Part shown: positions 3,822-61,568 of the stretch, piece after piece
Layout: every line of letters begins with the position of its first letter
How positions within the stretch are numbered: the stretch's first letter is position 1
DNA from: Escherichia coli
GTDB taxonomy: Bacteria > Pseudomonadota > Gammaproteobacteria > Enterobacterales > Enterobacteriaceae
Assembly: GCF_036507355.1 (NCBI RefSeq)
Contig: NZ_AP027877.1
Length of the DNA: 64,000 nucleotides
Direction: 5' to 3' (one strand)
The notes under the pieces: generated by a model
Told to the model about the DNA's origin: nothing
Databases searched by the model: none
What the model saw: the letters and a program-made list of their open reading frames with translations, nothing else
Translations under genes and position numbers: made by a program

Positions 3822-4763
3822 ATGGAAAAGAGAAAAATTATTCTGGATTGTGATCCGGGTCATGATGATGCTATTGCAATGATGATGGCAGCGAAACATC
3901 CGGCAATAGATTTATTAGGCATCACTATTGTAGCGGGTAATCAGACGCTTGATAAAACATTAATTAATGGCCTGAATGTTTGCCAGAAACTGGAGATTAA
4001 TGTTCCGGTTTATGCGGGGATGCCGCAACCCATTATGCGTCAACAAATCGTTGCCGATAATATTCACGGTGAAACCGGACTGGATGGCCCGGTATTCGAG
4101 CCGCTGACCCGCCAGGCAGAAAGTACCCACGCGGTGAAATACATCATTGATACCCTGATGGCAAGCGATGGCGATATCACTCTGGTGCCGGTTGGTCCGT
4201 TGTCAAATATCGCGGTGGCAATGCGTATGCAATCCGCAATCCTGCCCAAAATCCGTGAAATTGTGCTAATGGGCGGCGCTTACGGTACAGGCAACTTCAC
4301 GCCATCTGCCGAGTTCAACATCTTTGCTGACCCGGAAGCCGCACGCGTGGTGTTCACCTCCGGCGTTCCATTAGTGATGATGGGCCTCGATCTTACCAAC
4401 CAGACCGTTTGCACCCCGGACGTAATTGTTCGGATGGAAAGGGCAGGCGGCCCTGCCGGAGAGCTATTCAGCGACATCATGAACTTCACTCTCAAAACGC
4501 AGTTCGAAAACTACGGCCTGGCTGGCGGCCCGGTGCACGACGCCACCTGCATCGGTTATCTGATTAACCCTGATGGCATTAAAACCCAGGAGATGTACGT
4601 CGAAGTGGACGTCAACAGTGGCCCTTGCTATGGGCGTACCGTCTGCGACGAGCTGGGCGTTCTTGGCAAGCCCGCTAATACCAAAGTCGGCATCACTATT
4701 GATACCGACTGGTTCTGGGGCTTAGTCGAAGAGTGCGTGCGCGGCTACATCAAAACCCATTAA
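3822..4763 (+). CDS. rihB: pyrimidine-specific ribonucleoside hydrolase
   Basis: 313-aa ORF beginning [17 protein letters not shown] (nucleoside hydrolase DxDxxxDD aspartate motif). Confidence 0.9.
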
Positions 4764-4909
4764 GTGTTGATAACAAGCCGGGTCAGTATCGCAAAATGCA
4801 GGCCCGGCTATTTCTGAGGGGCAGAAAGCCGTCGCCCAATATGACATGAAGAGATAATAACTATGGATGTCATGAGAAGTGTTCTGGGAATGGTGGTATT
4901 GCTGACGAT

Positions 4910-4918
4910 TGCGTTTTT
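4910..4918. repeat. target-site duplication (left copy) TGCGTTTTT
   Basis: Identical 9-mer directly flanks both IS1 ends (4910..4918 and 5687..5695). Confidence 0.8.
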
Positions 4919-4973
4919 GGTGATGCTGCCAACTTACTGATTTAGTGTATGATGGTGTTTTTGAGGTGCTCCA

Positions 4974-5249
4974 GTGGCTTCTGTTTCTATCAGCTGTCCC
5001 TCCTGTTCAGCTACTGACGGGGTGGTGCGTAACGGCAAAAGCACCGCCGGACATCAGCGCTATCTCTGCTCTCACTGCCGTAAAACATGGCAACTGCAGT
5101 TCACTTACACCGCTTCTCAACCCGGTACGCACCAGAAAATCATTGATATGGCCATGAATGGCGTTGGATGCCGGGCAACAGCCCGCATTATGGGCGTTGG
5201 CCTCAACACGATTTTACGTCACTTAAAAAACTCAGGCCGCAGTCGGTAA
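4974..5249 (+). CDS. insA: IS1 InsA (transposition inhibitor / N-terminal part of InsAB' transposase)
   Basis: 91-aa [26 protein letters not shown]..., recognised IS1 InsA zinc-finger/HTH protein; GTG start. Confidence 0.9.
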
Positions 5250-5671
5250 CCTCGCGCATACAGCCGGGCAGTGACGTCATCGTCTGCGCGGAAATGGACG
5301 AACAGTGGGGCTATGTCGGGGCTAAATCGCGCCAGCGCTGGCTGTTTTACGCGTATGACAGGCTCCGGAAGACGGTTGTTGCGCACGTATTCGGTGAACG
5401 CACGATGGCGACGCTGGGGCGTCTTATGAGCCTGCTGTCACCCTTTGACGTGGTGATATGGATGACGGATGGCTGGCCGCTGTATGAATCCCGCCTGAAG
5501 GGAAAGCTGCACGTAATCAGCAAGCGATATACGCAGCGAATTGAGCGGCATAACCTGAATCTGAGGCAGCACCTGGCACGGCTGGGACGGAAGTCGCTGT
5601 CGTTCTCAAAATCGGTGGAGCTGCATGACAAAGTCATCGGGCATTATCTGAACATAAAACACTATCAATAA
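5168..5671 (+). CDS. insB: IS1 InsB reading frame (transposase catalytic part, expressed by -1 frameshift from insA)
   Basis: 167-aa ORF in -1 frame overlapping the insA 3' end, typical IS1 organisation. Confidence 0.85.
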
Positions 5672-5686
5672 GTTGGAGTCATTACC

Positions 5687-5695
5687 TGCGTTTTT
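5687..5695. repeat. target-site duplication (right copy) TGCGTTTTT
   Basis: See left copy. Confidence 0.8.
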
Positions 5696-6945
5696 ACTGT
5701 CAGTAAACAAGAAGAAGATCAGCCTGCGTACCGTTGGCGCGGCGTTAGTGTTACAGGTTGTGATTGGCGGGATTATGCTTTGGTTACCGCCAGGGCGTTG
5801 GGTCGCTGAAAAAGTCGCTTTTGGCGTGCATAAAGTGATGGCGTACAGCGATGCAGGTAGCGCATTTATCTTCGGTTCGCTGGTCGGGCCGAAAATGGAC
5901 ACGCTGTTTGATGGCGCAGGATTTATCTTTGGTTTCAGGGTGTTACCGGCAATTATCTTCGTCACCGCGCTGGTGAGTATTCTCTATTACATCGGTGTGA
6001 TGGGGATCTTAATTCGCATTCTCGGCGGTATATTCCAGAAAGCATTAAATATCAGCAAGATCGAGTCATTCGTCGCGGTCACTACCATTTTCCTCGGGCA
6101 AAACGAAATTCCGGCGATCGTCAAACCCTTTATCGATCGTCTGAATCGCAATGAATTATTTACAGCGATTTGTAGTGGCATGGCCTCGATTGCTGGTTCG
6201 ACAATGATTGGTTACGCCGCACTGGGCGTGCCTGTGGAATATTTGCTGGCGGCATCGTTAATGGCGATCCCAGGCGGGATCTTGTTTGCCCGCCTGCTAA
6301 GCCCGGCTATGGAATCTTCGCAGGTTTCTTTTAATAACCTCTCTTTCACCGAAACACCGCCAAAAAGCATTATTGAAGCTGCCGCGACAGAGGCAATGAC
6401 CGGGCTGAAAATCGCCGCAGGTGTGGCGACAGTAGTGATGGCATTTGTCGCCATCATTGCGTTAATTAACGGTATTATCGGCGGCGTTGGCGGCTGGTTT
6501 GGTTTTGAACATGCCTCGCTGGAATCCATTTTAGGTTACCTGCTGGCCCCACTGGCGTGGGTGATGGGTGTTGACTGGAGTGATGCGAATCTTGCCGGGA
6601 GTTTGATTGGTCAGAAACTGGCAATAAATGAATTTGTCGCTTATCTCAATTTCTCACCCTATCTGCAAACGGCTGACAAGCTGGATGCTAAAACCGTGGC
6701 GATTATTTCCTTCGCGTTGTGCGGTTTCGCTAACTTTGGTTCTATCGGGGTGGTGGTGGGGGCGTTTTCTGCGGTTGCGCCACACCGTGCGCCGGAAATC
6801 GCCCAACTTGGTTTACGCGCGCTGGCGGCGGCGACACTTTCTAATCTGATGAGTGCCACCATTGCCGGGTTCTTTATTGGTTTAGCGTAGTGTGCGATTT
6901 ATGAGCCGGATAATATGCGGTCAAGCGTCGAATCCGGCAACATTG

Positions 6946-23047: not shown

Positions 23048-23232
23048 TTGTAGGCCGGATAAGGCGTTCACGCCGCATCCGGCGACAGGAGCCAAATGCC
23101 GGATGCAACGCTGGCGCGTTTTATCCGGCCTACAATGAGCTCAACATACTGATTTGTATGGTTTTGTAGGCCGAATAAGGCGTTCAAGCCGCATCCGGCG
23201 ACAGGAACCAAATGCCGGATGCGTCTCTGGTT
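23048..23232. repeat. cluster of REP (repetitive extragenic palindromic) units / BIME
   Basis: Four units of GCCGGATAAGGCGTTCACGCCGCATCCGGC-type palindromes in alternating orientation between the convergent mglC and preA. Confidence 0.8.
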
Positions 23233-25743: not shown

Positions 25744-25869
25744 ATACTCGTCATACTTCAAGTTGCATGTGCTGCGTCTGCGTTCGCTCACCCCAGTCAC
25801 TTACTTATGTAAGCTCCTGGGGACTCACTCACTTGTCGCCTTCCTGCAACTCGAATTATTTAGAGTATA
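25744..25869. repeat. ERIC / IRU intergenic repeat element (~126 bp)
   Basis: Contains the ERIC core in reverse orientation (CGCTCACCCCAGTCACTTACTTATGTAAGCTCCTGGGGA) flanked by TATACTCG...GAGTATA terminal inverted repeats. Confidence 0.8.
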
Positions 25870-29269: not shown

Positions 29270-29363
29270 TTAATTCGTAAAACGTGCTACCGATCACATT
29301 AAGAATTCTCAGCATAGTTGAATTTTAGGGAGGTAACCTCGGGCGAGCGCCCCGTTCAGCACA

Positions 29364-30272
29364 CTAATTCTGCTGTAAAAAGTGCAGAAACTGACTTAAA
29401 GCATAAGAAGGCGTTTCGTTATTGCGCCAGAACACACCGACGCTACCTTTCTGTTCTATCTTTGGCAGGTTGAGTATCACCAGTTGTCCCTGGCTGGCAT
29501 AACGTTGCGCCAGGCGTAATGACAAAATAGAGATCATATCGCTGCTTTGTAACAGGTTGGTACTGACGTTCATCGACGCCGACTCAATCGTGTTTTCTGG
29601 CAGCATTACGCCGTGGTCTACCAGCGCATTATCAATACTAATGCGAATGGGGGTACCCGTCGGCCAGACGATCCAGCGCCAGTTGGCAAGATCATTCCAG
29701 CTGAGGGTGGCGTATTTCGCCAGTGGGTGCTCAGGGCGGGCGACAAAGCATACTGGCTCGGTGTACAGCACCTGATAATTCAGTGGCAGCTGCAATGCGC
29801 GACCGCCAATTCGCCCAACGACCACATCGACAGAACCTGCCAATAGATCTTGCAGCAATGGGGTCATCACCTTCTCTTCGATATTCAGGTGTAGAGTTGG
29901 CATCTTCGTAAGCAAATGCAAAATCGCCTGGGATACGCAGTCAGTGGCGACGGGAGAACAGCCAATTTTCAGACTGCCGACCAGTCCACCTTGTTTAAAA
30001 CGGGCCAGTTCATGTTGCGATCGCTCCATGTCATTGATTAACCGTTGGGCATGTTGCAATAACAATTTGCCGCCTTCAGTCGGACGTAATCCTTTGCTGT
30101 GCCGCTCAAAAAGTGTGATTCCAATCTCATCTTCGAGTTGTGACAACCATTTCGAAAGCGCAGGTTGGGTGATATTCATCATTCGTGCGACATGGGTTAG
30201 ATTGCCCTGTTCACCCAGCGCCACCAGCATTTCAAGGTGATGTAGTTTTAATTTTTGCGCCCAGTTCGCCAT
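29364..30272 (-). CDS. mhbR: LysR-type transcriptional regulator of the gentisate cluster
   Basis: ORF 29364..30320 trimmed to MANWAQKLKLHHLEMLVALGEQGNLTHVARMMNITQPALS (LysR HTH); divergent from the catabolic operon. Symbol by analogy to the Klebsiella mhbRTDHIM cluster. Confidence 0.75.
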   Translation of the reverse strand: MANWAQKLKLHHLEMLVALGEQGNLTHVARMMNITQPALSKWLSQLEDEIGITLFERHSKGLRPTEGGKLLLQHAQRLINDMERSQHELARFKQGGLVGSLKIGCSPVATDCVSQAILHLLTKMPTLHLNIEEKVMTPLLQDLLAGSVDVVVGRIGGRALQLPLNYQVLYTEPVCFVARPEHPLAKYATLSWNDLANWRWIVWPTGTPIRISIDNALVDHGVMLPENTIESASMNVSTNLLQSSDMISILSLRLAQRYASQGQLVILNLPKIEQKGSVGVFWRNNETPSYALSQFLHFLQQN

Positions 30273-30398
30273 TTGCCATAACCTCCAGGTTATCTCTCTG
30301 CCCGAAATGCCATTGTACATCTCATCTCTTTAATCACAATATCGCAACATATACAAAACAAAAGAAACATCTACCTTACCTGCACTGAGGCATTTACT

Positions 30399-31757
30399 AT
30401 GACTCAACGACGTGATTTACAAGCACTTATCGATGCTGCTCCGGTCGGCAAGATGCAGTGGCGCGTTATCATCTGCTGTTTTCTGGTGGTAATGCTCGAT
30501 GGTTTTGACACCGCGGCTATCGGATTTATCGCCCCTGATATTCGCACTCACTGGCAACTCACCGCAGGCGATCTCGCCCCGCTTTTTGGCGCGGGTCTGC
30601 TAGGATTAACCGCAGGCGCACTGCTTTGTGGCCCGTTGTCCGATCGCTTTGGTCGCAAGCGGGTGATTGAGCTGTGCGTCTTTTTGTTTGGCGCGTTAAG
30701 CCTCGCCTCGGCTTTCTCACCGGATCTGCAAACGCTGGTCTTCCTGCGCTTTCTCACCGGCCTGGGTCTGGGCGGCGCGATGCCGAACACCATCACCATG
30801 ACCTCGGAGTATCTGCCTGCCCGCCGCCGCGGCGCGCTGGTGACGCTGATGTTTTGCGGCTTTACGCTGGGTTCGGCGTTTGGCGGGATTGTCAGTGCGC
30901 AGCTGGTGCCGGTGATTGGCTGGCACGGCATTCTGGTGTTGGGGGGCGTGTTACCGCTGATGCTGTTTGTCGCACTGCTGGTAGTTCTGCCGGAATCGCC
31001 ACGCTGGCAGGTGCGCCGCCAGCTACCGCAGGCGGTGATTGCGAAAACCGTCAGCGCCATCACCCGCGAGCGTTATGTCGATACCCACTTTTATCTCATT
31101 GAATCAGCCTCCGTTACAAAAGGCAGCATTCGTCAACTGTTTATGGGACGTCAGTTACCCATCACGTTGATGCTGTGGGTAGTGTTCTTTATGAGCCTGC
31201 TGATTATTTACCTGCTCTCAAGCTGGATGCCGACGCTACTGAACCATCGCGGCATCGACCTGCAACACGCGTCCTGGGTCACCGCCGCGTTCCAGATTGG
31301 TGGTACGTTAGGCGCGCTGGCGCTGGGTGTGCTGATGGATAAGTTCAATCCTTTCCGCGTGCTGGCGCTGAGCTATGCCATAGGCGCTATATGCATCGTG
31401 ATGATTGGCTTAAGCCAGGATGGATTATGGTTGATGGCGCTGGCGATTTTCGGCACTGGCATTGGCATTAGCGGATCGCAGGTGGGGCTGAATGCGCTGA
31501 CCGCAACACTTTATCCAACACAAAGTCGCGCCACGGGCGTGAGCTGGTCAAATGCTATCGGCCGCTGCGGCGCGATTGTTGGTTCGCTGTCTGGCGGCGT
31601 GATGATGGCGATGAATTTCTCTTTCGACACCCTGTTTTTCATTATCGCTGTGCCTGCGGCGATCAGTGCGGTGATGTTAACCCTGCTGATTACCGTGGTT
31701 CGCCAGTCGACCTCTGTCCCTGACTCACTGCCTCGCGCAGGCGTTGTGAACGAATAA
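30399..31757 (+). CDS. mhbT: MFS transporter (aromatic acid/H+ symporter family), probable 3-hydroxybenzoate/gentisate uptake
   Basis: 452-aa 12-TM ORF; first gene of the operon. Confidence 0.75.
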
Positions 31758-31768
31758 GGAGCATCCCA

Positions 31769-32797
31769 ATGACTGATAACAATCAAAATAGCCGCGAGCA
31801 ATTTTATCAGCATATTTCCGGGCAAAACCTGACCCCGCTGTGGGAGTCACTGCACCATCTGGTGCCGAAAACGCCCAACGCTAACTGTGCGCCAGCGTAC
31901 TGGAATTATCAGGAGATCCGCCCGCTGCTACTGGAGAGCGGCGGCCTGATTGGTGCGAAAGAGGCCGTGCGCCGCGTGCTGGTGCTGGAAAACCCGGCGC
32001 TGCGCGGGCAGTCTTCCATTACCGCGACTTTATATGCCGGTTTGCAACTGATCATGCCGGGCGAAGTGGCACCGAGTCATCGTCATAATCAGTCGGCGCT
32101 GCGTTTTATTGTTGAAGGCAAAGGGGCATTTACCGCCGTTGATGGCGAACGCACGCCAATGAATGAAGGCGATTTTATCCTGACCCCGCAGTGGCGCTGG
32201 CACGATCACGGTAACCCTGGCGACGAACCGGTTATCTGGCTCGATGGGCTGGATCTGCCATTAGTGAATATTCTGGGCTGCGGTTTTGCCGAAGATTATC
32301 CGGAAGAGCAACAACCGGTAACGCGTAAAGAGGGAGATTATCTGCCGCGTTACGCTGCCAATATGTTGCCGCTGCGGCATCAGACGGGGAACTCCTCGCC
32401 GATCTTTAACTATCGTTATGACCGCAGCCGCGAAGTGCTGCACGATTTAACCCGACTGGGCGATGCCGACGAGTGGGATGGCTACAAAATGCGCTACGTC
32501 AACCCGGTCACCGGCGGCTATCCGATGCCGTCGATGGGCGCTTTCCTGCAACTGCTGCCGAAAGGGTTTGCCTCACGCGTTGCGCGTACCACTGACAGCA
32601 CCATCTACCATGTGGTGGAAGGTAGCGGGCAGGTCATCATCGGCAATGAAACCTTCAGCTTTAGTGCAAAAGATATCTTCGTGGTGCCGACCTGGCATGG
32701 CGTGTCGTTCCAGACCACGCAAGATTCCGTTTTATTTAGTTTTTCGGACAGACCGGTACAAGAAGCCCTGGGGCTGTTCCGCGAAGCGCGTTATTAA
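31769..32797 (+). CDS. mhbD: gentisate 1,2-dioxygenase (bicupin)
   Basis: 342-aa ORF with cupin His motifs ([17 protein letters not shown]); typical gentisate dioxygenase length. Confidence 0.8.
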
Positions 32798-32811
32798 TTT
32801 AGGAGAGAAAA

Positions 32812-33513
32812 ATGACTCAATACGTATTCGAACCGCAAGCGCCCGTTACCGTACCGGTTGTTGGCAGTGATGAACAATTCCCCGTGCGCCGCGTTTACTG
32901 CGTCGGACGTAACTATGCCGCTCACGCCCGCGAAATGGGCTTTGATCCGGATCGTGAACCGCCATTCTTCTTCTGCAAACCGGCGGATGCCGTTGTTCCG
33001 GTTGCCGCTGGTGAAACGCTGGCGCTGCCGTATCCGGCACAGACCGATAACTACCATTACGAAATTGAACTGGTGGTGGCGATTGGTAAAAAAGGCAGCG
33101 ATATCCCGCTGGAACACGCCCATGAATATGTCTGGGGTTATGCCACGGGTCTTGATATGACTCGGCGTGACCGTCAAATGGAAATGCGCCAGATGGGCCG
33201 CCCGTGGGAAATCGGTAAAGCGTTTGATCTCTCAGCGCCCATCGCGCCGCTGCACAAAGCCCGCGATATCGGCGGTATTGATAATGCGCCAATCTGGTTA
33301 CAGGTTAACGGCGAAGATCATCAGCGCAGCGATATTCGCCATCTCATCTGGTCGGTGAATGAAACCATCAGCTATCTGTCAGGCTTCTTTGAGCTGCAAC
33401 CGGGCGATCTGATCTTCACCGGTACGCCGGAAGGGGTTGGCCCGGTAGTGAAAGGTGATGTGATCACAGGCAACGTCGAGGGCTTAACGCCTATCGCGGT
33501 GAAGATTGTCTGA
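32812..33513 (+). CDS. mhbH: fumarylpyruvate hydrolase (FAH family)
   Basis: 233-aa ORF with FAH-fold signatures ([14 protein letters not shown]; [10 protein letters not shown]). Confidence 0.75.
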
Positions 33514-33518
33514 GGTGC

Positions 33519-34166
33519 ATGATGAAGCTGTACAGTTTTTTTAATAGTTCAGCGTCGTACCGGGTACGCATTGCGCTGGCGCTGAAAGGCATTAATTACC
33601 AGACCGAAGGGGTGAATATCCGTATTGGTCAGCAAAATGAACTGGCCTATCGGCGGATGAATCCGGTCGGGCTGGTGCCGACGCTGCTGACTGACGAGGG
33701 CGAATCACTCGGACAATCGCTGGCGATTATTGACTGGCTGGAGAGGCACTACCCGCAAGTTCCGCTGGTGCCGCAGGAAGAGCCGGCCCGCAACAAGGTG
33801 CTGGAAATTGTCTATGCCATCGCTTGTGATATTCATCCATTGAATAACTTGCGCGTGCTGCGCTACCTGACCGAAGAACTGAACGTCAGTGAAGAAGAAA
33901 AAAAACGTTGGTATGCGCACTGGATCCAGCAAGGGTTAAGCGCGGTGGAACAACTGTTGCGCCAGAACCAGTCGGGGCAATTTTGTGTGGGCGAGACGCC
34001 GACGCTGGCAGATTGCTGCCTTGTCCCGCAGTGGGCGAACGCGCTACGCATGAACTGCGATTTGAGCGGGTATCCACGCTGCAAAGCGGTGTACGACGCC
34101 TGCACACAGCTGCCAGCGTTCATTGCCGCAGCGCCAGAAAATCAACAAGATAAAATTTCAGCCTGA
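33519..34166 (+). CDS. mhbI: maleylpyruvate isomerase (glutathione S-transferase zeta-like)
   Basis: 215-aa ORF with GST N-terminal fold (MKLYSFFNSSASYRVRIAL). Confidence 0.75.
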   Translation: MMKLYSFFNSSASYRVRIALALKGINYQTEGVNIRIGQQNELAYRRMNPVGLVPTLLTDEGESLGQSLAIIDWLERHYPQVPLVPQEEPARNKVLEIVYAIACDIHPLNNLRVLRYLTEELNVSEEEKKRWYAHWIQQGLSAVEQLLRQNQSGQFCVGETPTLADCCLVPQWANALRMNCDLSGYPRCKAVYDACTQLPAFIAAAPENQQDKISA

Positions 34167-34180
34167 CCAGGAGAACTATA

Positions 34181-35374
34181 ATGACGAAAGTGACACGCGC
34201 AGTAATTGTGGGAGGCGGGATCGGCGGTGCGGCAACTGCGCTGTCACTGGCCCGCCTGGGGATCAAAGTGGTGCTGCTGGAAAAGGCGCATGAGATCGGT
34301 GAGATTGGCGCGGGCATCCAGTTGGGGCCAAATGCGTTTTCGGCGCTGGACAGCCTCGGCGTCGGCGAAGTTGCCCGCCAGCGCGCGGTGTTTACCGATC
34401 ACATTACCATGATGGATGCGGTGAACGCCGAAGAAGTGGTGTGCATTGAAACCGGGCAGGCTTTTCGTGACCATTTCGGCGGCCCTTACGCGGTGATCCA
34501 CCGGGTTGATATTCACGCCTCGGTGTGGGAAGCGGTACTGACGCATCCGGACGTGGAATATCACACCTCCACCAACGTCGTGGATATTCGCGAGACGGAA
34601 GACGATGTCACCGTGTTTGACGATCGCGGCAATAGCTGGACCGGCGATATTCTGATTGGCTGTGACGGCGTGAAGTCAGTGGTGCGCCAGAGCTTATTGG
34701 GCGATGCGCCGCGTGTCACCGGACATGTTGTCTACCGTGCGGTTATCGATCGTGCCGATATGCCGGAAGATTTGCGCATTAACGCACCGGTACTGTGGGC
34801 GGGGCCGCATTGTCACTTGGTGCATTACCCTTTGCGCGGCGGCAAGCAGTATAACCTGGTGGTAACATTCCACAGCCGCCAGCAGGAAGAGTGGGGCGTG
34901 AAGGATGGTAGTAAAGAGGAAGTGCTCTCTTACTTTGAAGGGATTCACCCCCGTCCGCGCCAGATGTTGGATAAACCGACTTCATGGCGACGCTGGTCAA
35001 CCGCTGACCGTGAACCGGTGGCGAAGTGGGGAACGAAGCGCATAACGCTTGTGGGCGATTCGGCCCATCCGGTGGCGCAATATATGGCGCAGGGAGCCTG
35101 TATGGCGCTGGAAGATGCAGTAACGCTGGGTAAGGCGCTGGCGCAGTGTGAGGGTGATGCGGCGCAAGCCTTTGCGCTGTATGAGTCGGTACGAATTCCG
35201 CGCACCGCGCGCATCGTCTGGTCGACCCGTGAAATGGGGCGGGTTTACCACGCCGCAGGGGTAGAACGCCAGGTACGTAATCTGCTGTGGAAAGGGAAAT
35301 CGCAGGCAGAATTTTATCGCGGCATGGAGTGGTTGTACGGCTGGAAAGAAGATAACTGTTTGCAACCACGCTAA
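34181..35374 (+). CDS. mhbM: 3-hydroxybenzoate 6-hydroxylase (FAD-dependent monooxygenase)
   Basis: 397-aa ORF with N-terminal FAD-binding GxGxxG (VIVGGGIGGAATAL) and flavin monooxygenase core. Confidence 0.8.
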   Translation: MTKVTRAVIVGGGIGGAATALSLARLGIKVVLLEKAHEIGEIGAGIQLGPNAFSALDSLGVGEVARQRAVFTDHITMMDAVNAEEVVCIETGQAFRDHFGGPYAVIHRVDIHASVWEAVLTHPDVEYHTSTNVVDIRETEDDVTVFDDRGNSWTGDILIGCDGVKSVVRQSLLGDAPRVTGHVVYRAVIDRADMPEDLRINAPVLWAGPHCHLVHYPLRGGKQYNLVVTFHSRQQEEWGVKDGSKEEVLSYFEGIHPRPRQMLDKPTSWRRWSTADREPVAKWGTKRITLVGDSAHPVAQYMAQGACMALEDAVTLGKALAQCEGDAAQAFALYESVRIPRTARIVWSTREMGRVYHAAGVERQVRNLLWKGKSQAEFYRGMEWLYGWKEDNCLQPR

Positions 35375-35394
35375 GCACTTCTTCACCCAATCAG

Positions 35395-35450
35395 GCGCAC
35401 GGGCGGTCCCCTCGCCCCTTCGGGAGAGGGTTAGGGTGAGGGTAAAAATC
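35395..35450. repeat. GC-rich imperfect palindromic element at the gentisate-cluster/dusC junction
   Basis: GGCGCACGGGCGGTCCCCTCGCCCCTTCGGGAGAGGGTTAGGGTGAGGGT: CCCTCGCCCC/GGGAGAGGG imperfect inverted repeat. Confidence 0.4.
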
Positions 35451-35533
35451 TTGCCCGAATTAATCAGTAAGTCAGTTTGTCTGCAAACACAGGAGGCGCT
35501 AACATAGCGCCTCATTTTTTTGCGGGTGATGAT

Positions 35534-36484: not shown

Positions 36485-36871
36485 TAGTGGAATCGCAGTT
36501 TATCAGAGACAATGAATCGCTTATTCAGCTTCATCATCTTGTTGCGCTCCTTTCATGAGCTAAGCCACATATTGCCACTGGCGCAAGGAGCGCGCAGGGG
36601 GAGGACAATCGCCTCCTCCCCCTGCACCCCCGGGCTCTGGCGAACAAAATCGCCGCTGCGCGGTACCTTCAGCTTATCCCCTTCGGCTACCGGGTCGGGC
36701 GCGAGGAAACGTCCTTGTAAGACGCGCCCTCAGCCCACATCCATGTGGGCTGCCCCGGCCTTCGGGGAACGCTTCAGCGATTTTGACGCCACCAACACCG
36801 GAGCTGTTTGCAAATCAAGTACACAAAATATCTAGTTCCTGACCTGACAACTTATATGTCATATCTGATTT

Positions 36872-40927: not shown

Positions 40928-41056
40928 AGCATTTCCTCACGATTCTCCTTTGACGATCGCACTTTTTGCTCGTTATGATGGCGTCGCTAGCCTCAGTAAA
41001 TCCTTACTCCGGCGGTGCGCAACCCGTGCGCGTGAACCACTATCTGAATGCTCATC

Positions 41057-50371: not shown

Positions 50372-51103
50372 TTAAATGTCGAGTGGGAAAATATCATGGC
50401 CTTGTTCTTGCCAACTGGTGAGTTGCTGCTGTTGGGCGGAGGTTCGATTTTCACCGCACCACACCAGCAATGTACGGCCTTCGAATAGTTCAGGGCGTAG
50501 TTGATTGAGCGAATGGGCGAGGACATCAATGCGCCATCCTTGTTGACTGGCAATCCAGCCCTCCAGCCACAGACGGATGGTATCCTGAATATTCCAGCCA
50601 ACCACCAGCGCATCTTTACCCTGTTTTTTACGTGCCGAAGCCAGACAAATGGCGATGTAGTTGATCAGTACGCCGTCGAGGATCGCCAGCAGCGCCTGGA
50701 GAGTCGGTTGTTGGCACTGAAGCCGTCGGCGCAGAGGAATAAACAGATGTGTGGTGAGCGTCTGGGCGGGGTAATCCTGACCGCGCTCTTTGATCCACGT
50801 TCGCAGGCTATGCAGATTGCCGCTTTGCAGGTAGGTCAGTAATGTTTCTTGCTGATCGCGCCAGCCGTTCTGCACATCAACATTTTCATTACTGAGCAGC
50901 ATTTTAACTTTGCTGACCTGCACGCCGTTGTCGATCCAGCGTTTGATCTCGCGGATACGGTCAATATCGGCATCGTTGAACAGCCGATGACCGCCGTCTG
51001 TCCGTTGCGATTTCAGCAATCCGTAACGCCTCTGCCACGCGCGTAACGTGACAGGGTTAATATCACAAAGCAACGCCACTTCACCAATTGTGTAAAGCGC
51101 CAT
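50372..51103 (-). CDS. mlrA: MerR-family transcriptional regulator (curli/csgD activator)
   Basis: 243-aa ORF with N-terminal MerR HTH (MALYTIGEVALLCDINPVTLRAWQRRYGLL). Confidence 0.9.
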   Translation of the reverse strand: MALYTIGEVALLCDINPVTLRAWQRRYGLLKSQRTDGGHRLFNDADIDRIREIKRWIDNGVQVSKVKMLLSNENVDVQNGWRDQQETLLTYLQSGNLHSLRTWIKERGQDYPAQTLTTHLFIPLRRRLQCQQPTLQALLAILDGVLINYIAICLASARKKQGKDALVVGWNIQDTIRLWLEGWIASQQGWRIDVLAHSLNQLRPELFEGRTLLVWCGENRTSAQQQQLTSWQEQGHDIFPLDI

Positions 51104-61484: not shown

Positions 61485-61568
61485 TAAAAAAACCTGCTGG
61501 TGAGGCAGGTTCTTTTATTTACTATTTTCAGGCCTAACACCACAGCCTGTGCAACATCGTGTTCCAAC
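61485..61568 (-). ncRNA. orzO: candidate OrzO-like antitoxin sRNA of the zor/orz type I TA locus
   Basis: Minus-strand sigma70 promoter (-35 TTGCAA 61603..61598, 17-nt spacer, -10 TATAAT 61580..61575) precedes a region whose transcript would be complementary to the zorO 5' UTR (direct DNA repeat 61549..61573 vs 61715..61739), ending at a minus-strand hairpin plus U-tract (stem 61492..61510, A-run 61485..61491 on plus strand). Boundaries approximate. Confidence 0.45.

Follow-up and report, generated by a model that had tools for sequence, protein, structure and literature searches.

A complete, intact IS1 element interrupts the nupX gene in the 64-kb stretch of Escherichia coli DNA analysed here (the window), and the insertion occurs in a single genome. 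The explanation that we favour, and hold to be very probable, is that IS1 entered the 5' end of chromosomal nupX in one lineage, that functional NupX was most likely lost, and that this loss is probably tolerated. In that lineage, an active IS1 copy would have inserted itself there by transposition and generated the usual 9-bp target duplication. The insertion would thereby cut off the nupX promoter, the ribosome-binding site and the first 18 codons, which make up most of helix 1, from the other 398 codons. As these parts are separated from the gene body, the strain is most likely without functional NupX. We infer the loss of NupX function and also the neutrality of the insertion.

The IS1 element and the interrupted gene

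The element covers 768 bp (4919..5686, +; checked by script on the window sequence) and lies in the same orientation as nupX, with its left inverted repeat upstream. It starts with GGTGATGCTGCCAACTTACTGAT and ends with ATCAATAAGTTGGAGTCATTACC. The terminal inverted repeats are imperfect, with GGTGATGCTGCCAACTTACTGAT and GGTAATGACTCCAACTTATTGAT agreeing at 18 of 23 positions. On both sides the element is bordered by a perfect copy of the 9-bp target-site duplication TGCGTTTTT (left copy 4910..4918, right copy 5687..5695). As the adjoining bases differ on either side, the repeat is exactly 9 bp long, and the chance of a random 9-bp match at one given position pair is 3.8e-6.

Within the element, insA (4974..5249, +) begins with GTG and encodes 91 amino acids with a Zn-ribbon and an HTH region. 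The programmed -1 frameshift motif AAAAAAC (A6C; 5225..5231, +) leads from insA into the insB' reading frame (5168..5671, +), which holds the DDE_Tnp_IS1 domain. A -1 shift at this motif results in a 232-aa InsAB' fusion without interruption, and the fusion matches Zn_ribbon_InsA, HTH_Tnp_IS1 and DDE_Tnp_IS1 (PF03811, PF12759 and PF03400; E-values 8e-21 to 3.5e-78). A consensus promoter scan placed a promoter-like site at the left end, facing inward (CTGCCA-16-TATGAT; 4926..4953, +), which we take to be the position of IS1's own insA promoter. Thousands of plasmid-borne copies with an IS1A-family annotation show 100% identity to this copy, and 2 nt separate it from K-12 IS1A; all its coding and end sequences are intact. 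Length, inverted repeats, insA and insB' with the A6C motif, the 9-bp duplication and the near-identity to the reference all agree with the IS1 family. An earlier note on this DNA had described a complete 768-bp IS1 with intact insA/insB and intact 9-bp direct repeats, and both descriptions hold. A second IS1 copy was sought throughout the 64-kb window and none was found; a composite transposon was rejected on this ground.

The surrounding gene order, psuK-psuG-psuT-yeiL-rihB-nupX-yeiI-nfo-yeiH, is the one annotated in RefSeq for E. coli O145 RM9872. The nupX gene starts with an ATG at 4863. Its 5' fragment (4863..4918, +) comprises 18 codons plus 2 nt ahead of IS1, so the element sits inside codon 19. 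The earlier note had the transporter split after codon 19; the split itself stands, but its position is within that codon. The reading frame of the 5' fragment continues into IS1 as far as TGA 4938..4940; the resulting peptide, MDVMRSVLGMVVLLTIAFLVMLPTY, has 25 aa. The 3' fragment (5696..6890, +) begins with the final base of codon 19 and extends to the stop codon, with no stop or frameshift within it. Removal of IS1 and one repeat copy in silico yields an in-frame 416-aa ORF (...TIAFLLSVNKKK...), so that the gene halves are co-linear, as had been stated before.

The restored 416-aa protein has all three CNT Pfam domains: Nucleos_tra2_N (PF01773, residues 8-81), Gate (PF07670, 99-195) and Nucleos_tra2_C (PF07662, 201-410). 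Compared with solved transporters, it gives E = 1e-128 for CNTNW (5L26) and 4e-123 for vcCNT. It is 99% identical to the annotated NupX of O145 RM9872 versus 87% to PsuT, and together with the rihB-nupX-yeiI synteny this identifies the gene as the nupX orthologue. The 9-bp duplication and the restored CNT-family ORF hence support the earlier proposal that IS1 transposed into nupX.

With Nucleos_tra2_N spanning residues 8-81, the IS1 break falls within this domain. A functional CNT has an uninterrupted gene, its own start codon and the first transmembrane helix, a combination that is not present at this locus. Since the insertion in codon 19 splits helix 1, we regard the locus as a disrupted nupX and not as a working member of the family.

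Loss of NupX is probably tolerated, as the protein carries pyrimidine nucleosides with low efficiency and a paralogue is present. Over-expressed NupX mediates uptake of uridine and cytidine at low efficiency, and it is NupC and NupG that carry nucleosides efficiently in E. coli K-12 (PMC11241209). The paralogue PsuT, 87% identical to NupX, is encoded 2 kb upstream within the window. NupC and NupG are assumed from the species to be encoded in this strain, outside the window. The insertion shows that at least one natural isolate can do without nupX, in line with a weak and redundant transport activity.

Distribution of the insertion and private changes in the same genome

The left junction was searched in 5,426 complete E. 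coli genomes, and none carries it; 4,431 complete E. coli genomes match at least 80% of a reconstructed 400-nt query for the empty site. Exact junction strings gave no match in 241 million metagenome records and none in the GTDB species representative genomes. The 405-aa chimeric ORF that spans the right junction (see below) was found on one contig among about 15 billion proteins, namely a 4,643,937-bp E. coli chromosome.

The closest complete genome is E. coli O145 RM9872, and no complete E. coli genome exceeds 99.2% identity. This ceiling had raised the suspicion of a Shigella genome, which was rejected because the exact proteins lead to the E. coli chromosome just named (BED217xx, locus tags VEE46_) and to E. 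coli relatives. Near-identical relatives were reached via rare alleles of PsuG, YeiB, MdtQ and YehQ. The 452-aa MFS protein of an island between yohJ and dusC was too common for this purpose and gave relatives at about 99% identity only. The near-identical relatives L003 and L020 differ by 0-3 SNPs per 10 kb (3 SNPs in 8.5 kb for L003 and 2 SNPs in 11.6 kb for L020), and in each of them the site is empty, with one copy of TGCGTTTTT. All other contigs read at the nupX locus have an intact 416-aa nupX. As the relatives have the empty site and the junction is absent from the collections searched, the insertion is private to one genome and belongs on its terminal branch. The earlier suggestion that it is strain-specific is thus confirmed. 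Its probable recency, also proposed before, is supported in relative terms only: judged from the sequence comparison, the insertion arose after this genome had parted from relatives at a distance of about 1 SNP per 10 kb.

Presence in one deposited genome only would also fit an artefact, either a mis-assembly around a repeated IS or a jump of IS1 in the laboratory culture that was sequenced. Movement of IS1 is known from stored and cultured strains. A mis-assembly, however, would not yield a perfect 9-bp duplication with both junctions precise, and the contig that bears the insertion is a 4.64-Mb chromosome. Had IS1 jumped in culture, the insertion would be just as real and of the same kind, and its age alone would differ. 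We therefore consider an artefact very improbable.

For the terminal branch, the whole window was compared with the near-identical relatives L020-L024, and the differences were polarised with outgroups. This genome has 7 derived SNPs in 63 kb. Two of them lie close to the insertion. One is a C-to-T substitution at 4429 (+), which results in A203V in RihB, encoded directly upstream of nupX. The other is a G-to-A substitution at 6391 (+), which results in G251E in NupX. The remaining five are found at 23174 (intergenic, no effect), 50379 (mlrA, G242D), 51130 (intergenic, no effect), 60770 (yehL, A202D) and 61046 (yehL, G110D).

G251E: Gly251 is a conserved residue, shared by every relative that was examined, by the paralogue PsuT and by the solved CNTNW and vcCNT. 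No complete E. coli genome contains the 61-mer with the G251E allele. The earlier note had called the downstream frame undecayed; this is right in that the frame has no stop or frameshift, but it now contains a private change at a conserved glycine. nupX may already have been impaired before IS1 arrived.

Branch pattern: All 7 SNPs are at G:C pairs (6 GC>AT and 1 GC>TA), and all five in coding regions are nonsynonymous. The private SNPs of the relatives comprise 4 synonymous and 2 nonsynonymous changes, so the nonsynonymous excess on this branch is modest and marginal (Fisher P = 0.06). We read the terminal branch as carrying recent, unpurged mutations, of which the IS1 insertion is one. The pattern could mean relaxed selection, a recent bottleneck or a mutagenic history.

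The same data bear on a selective explanation, in which loss or alteration of rihB-nupX was favoured in this lineage and IS1 was one of several adaptive hits instead of a neutral accident. RihB A203V, NupX G251E and IS1 are three independent private changes within 2.3 kb, and 2 of the 7 branch SNPs fall into the rihB-nupX span, which is 3.6% of the sequence (binomial P = 0.024, in a post hoc test). In addition, nupX acquired four mutations, 3 nonsynonymous and 1 synonymous, during 1,200 days of stationary-phase evolution (PMC7858067). Against this, yehL also has two private missense changes and mlrA has one; the clustering in rihB-nupX is therefore weakly significant as well as post hoc. As all five coding SNPs are nonsynonymous, the pattern resembles genome-wide unpurged mutation, not targeting of nupX. 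Furthermore, no other genome with an insertion at the nupX site was found among complete E. coli genomes, metagenomes and GTDB representatives. Targeted decay or selection of rihB-nupX was hence set aside, since mlrA and yehL (twice) are hit on the same branch. As nupX was repeatedly mutated in stationary-phase culture (PMC7858067), we nevertheless keep a small probability for selection.

Several further features were observed in the window. An Rfam scan gave no RNA element in or near the IS1/nupX region. Elsewhere it gave an OrzO-P antitoxin RNA match at 61486..61561 (-; 99.9 bits), between yehL and the next ORF, which suggests a type I toxin-antitoxin locus of the zorO-orzO type. It also gave naRNA4, a REP-derived nucleoid-associated RNA, at 23053..23130 (+) between mglC and preA, and a Peptidase-S11 leader motif at 40972..41052 (+) upstream of pbpG. 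A repeat of about 120 bp at 25747..25866, directly upstream of preT, is lacking in O145 RM9872 and at ten other E. coli loci and is present in the near-identical relative L021; we take it to be an ERIC-type palindromic repeat from its likeness to the ERIC/IRU consensus.

The island between yohJ and dusC is a 6.2-kb block (29309..35493) with genes for a LysR regulator, an MFS transporter, a cupin dioxygenase, an FAA-family hydrolase, a GST-type isomerase and an FAD mono-oxygenase. It looks like a gentisate/3-hydroxybenzoate pathway, is missing in O145 RM9872 and is found in many other E. coli genomes. The 272-bp intergenic stretch between dusC and yohP (36524..36795) is inverted relative to O145 RM9872, with 88.6% identity; one weak 16-nt inverted repeat was considered in explanation. 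mlrA (50372..51103) is intact in the window; in O145 RM9872 (L007, 20031..20480) an IS3-family element and a prophage cut it short.

Possible expression of the 3' fragment and the chimeric reading frame

The right end of IS1 provides a TTG at 5673 that is in frame with nupX and stands 1 nt past the insB stop codon. From it, a chimeric ORF of 405 aa (5673..6890, +) extends to the nupX stop. Its TTG and first five codons belong to IS1; two codons derived from the target duplication follow, and the rest is nupX codons 19-416. The ORF is deposited as BED21752.1 / WP_338388253.1, 'NupC/NupG family nucleoside CNT transporter', without a pseudogene flag, and automatic annotation treats it as a normal protein in both DDBJ and RefSeq.

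These features favour the idea that 3' nupX is still expressed, from a hybrid promoter or by read-through from insB, and translated from the IS1-borne TTG (5673) or an internal start codon into a truncated or remodelled transporter with some activity. The chimeric ORF has 97% of the full length and was accepted by two annotation pipelines. The earlier note had likewise suggested that the 3' fragment might be expressed from an outward IS1 promoter. We examined this idea at the level of transcription, translation and protein.

Transcription: In IS1, the outward -35 box sits in the inverted repeat, and a hybrid promoter arises only when a -10 box is present at the right distance (PMC8764528, PMC9330008). 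In this copy, the outward -35 box is TTGGAG at the right end (5673..5678), facing the nupX fragment. A good -10 box at 16-18 bp was looked for in the flank, and the best partner of TTGGAG is TACTGT at 16 bp. The pair has 6/12 matches, which is under the threshold of the consensus scan. Accordingly, the scan showed no outward promoter at the IS1 right end and only the inward site at the left end. Where IS1 inserts without a well-placed -10 box, the neighbouring gene stays unactivated (PMC8764528). A transcript from the hybrid promoter would, moreover, begin downstream of TTG 5673.

Translation: A Shine-Dalgarno motif was sought before the in-frame start codons (TTG 5673, GTG 5748 and 5760, ATG 5775 and others), and none of them is preceded by one.

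Protein: The chimeric N-terminus, MESLPAFLLSV..., is without the hydrophobic helix-1 segment. The best 19-residue hydropathy value is 0.71 for the chimeric ORF compared with 2.18 for native NupX. Part of Nucleos_tra2_N is missing together with helix 1, and the product would also carry G251E at the conserved glycine.

The suggestion of expression from an outward IS1 promoter is hence not sustained, and we regard an expressed 3' fragment with residual activity as improbable. As there is no outward promoter and no Shine-Dalgarno motif, helix 1 is lost and Nucleos_tra2_N is broken, loss of function is the most likely outcome.

A related but far-fetched variant would treat the IS1 right end as a portable start codon, with a helix-1-less NupX carrying G251E that is altered rather than dead. 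Because the TTG is 1 nt past the insB stop, ribosomes that finish insB could re-initiate at 5673, and a weak hybrid promoter might add transcripts. Such a protein would keep the native topology in its remaining part, as the lysine-rich loop that follows helix 1 would be expected to be cytoplasmic under the positive-inside rule. If this were true, the altered transporter would perhaps have been selected together with RihB A203V. This variant seems to us very doubtful.

Under the preferred reading, namely loss of functional NupX, the entry WP_338388253.1 is an annotation artefact, which the IS1 end can create in one orientation and frame. Since the IS1 right end can supply an in-frame TTG, a disrupted gene is reported as a near-full-length protein. 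Pseudogene counts and pan-genome presence/absence tables would overlook such IS1-TTG chimeric ORFs. The insertion itself is a clean, datable marker of one lineage and means little beyond strain bookkeeping. What goes beyond routine is the listing of the chimeric ORF as an ordinary transporter and the modest excess of private missense changes on the branch.

Comparison with known systems

The locus is a textbook case of inactivation by IS1 insertion. Events of this kind are known, and the genome is already publicly deposited. The element corresponds to the IS1A/IS1R-type 768-bp element of Enterobacteriaceae, with the same length, imperfect inverted repeats of about 23 bp, insA, A6C, insB', 9-bp duplication and A/T-rich target. 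There is no structural difference, and the insertion site alone is new.

The gene corresponds to NupX (YeiJ, UniProt P33021), an E. coli CNT of the NupC family, with the same rihB/yeiI locus and the same domains. It differs from P33021 in that it is broken inside codon 19 and carries the private G251E.

In cases of IS1 hybrid-promoter activation (blaTEM, acrEF, afaA), the same outward TTGGAG -35 box faces a downstream gene, as it faces the gene fragment here. In contrast to those cases, a suitably spaced -10 box is absent, and IS1 lies within the coding region, not upstream of it.

Further parallels are the classical polar IS1 mutations in gal and lac and the pseudogenisation in Shigella and other IS-rich lineages, which likewise involve a hit in the 5' coding part. 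With these it shares the uncoupling of the gene body from promoter and start codon as well as an intact duplication. It differs from them as a single isolated event: the 64-kb window has no other IS1 and thus gives no hint of an IS expansion.
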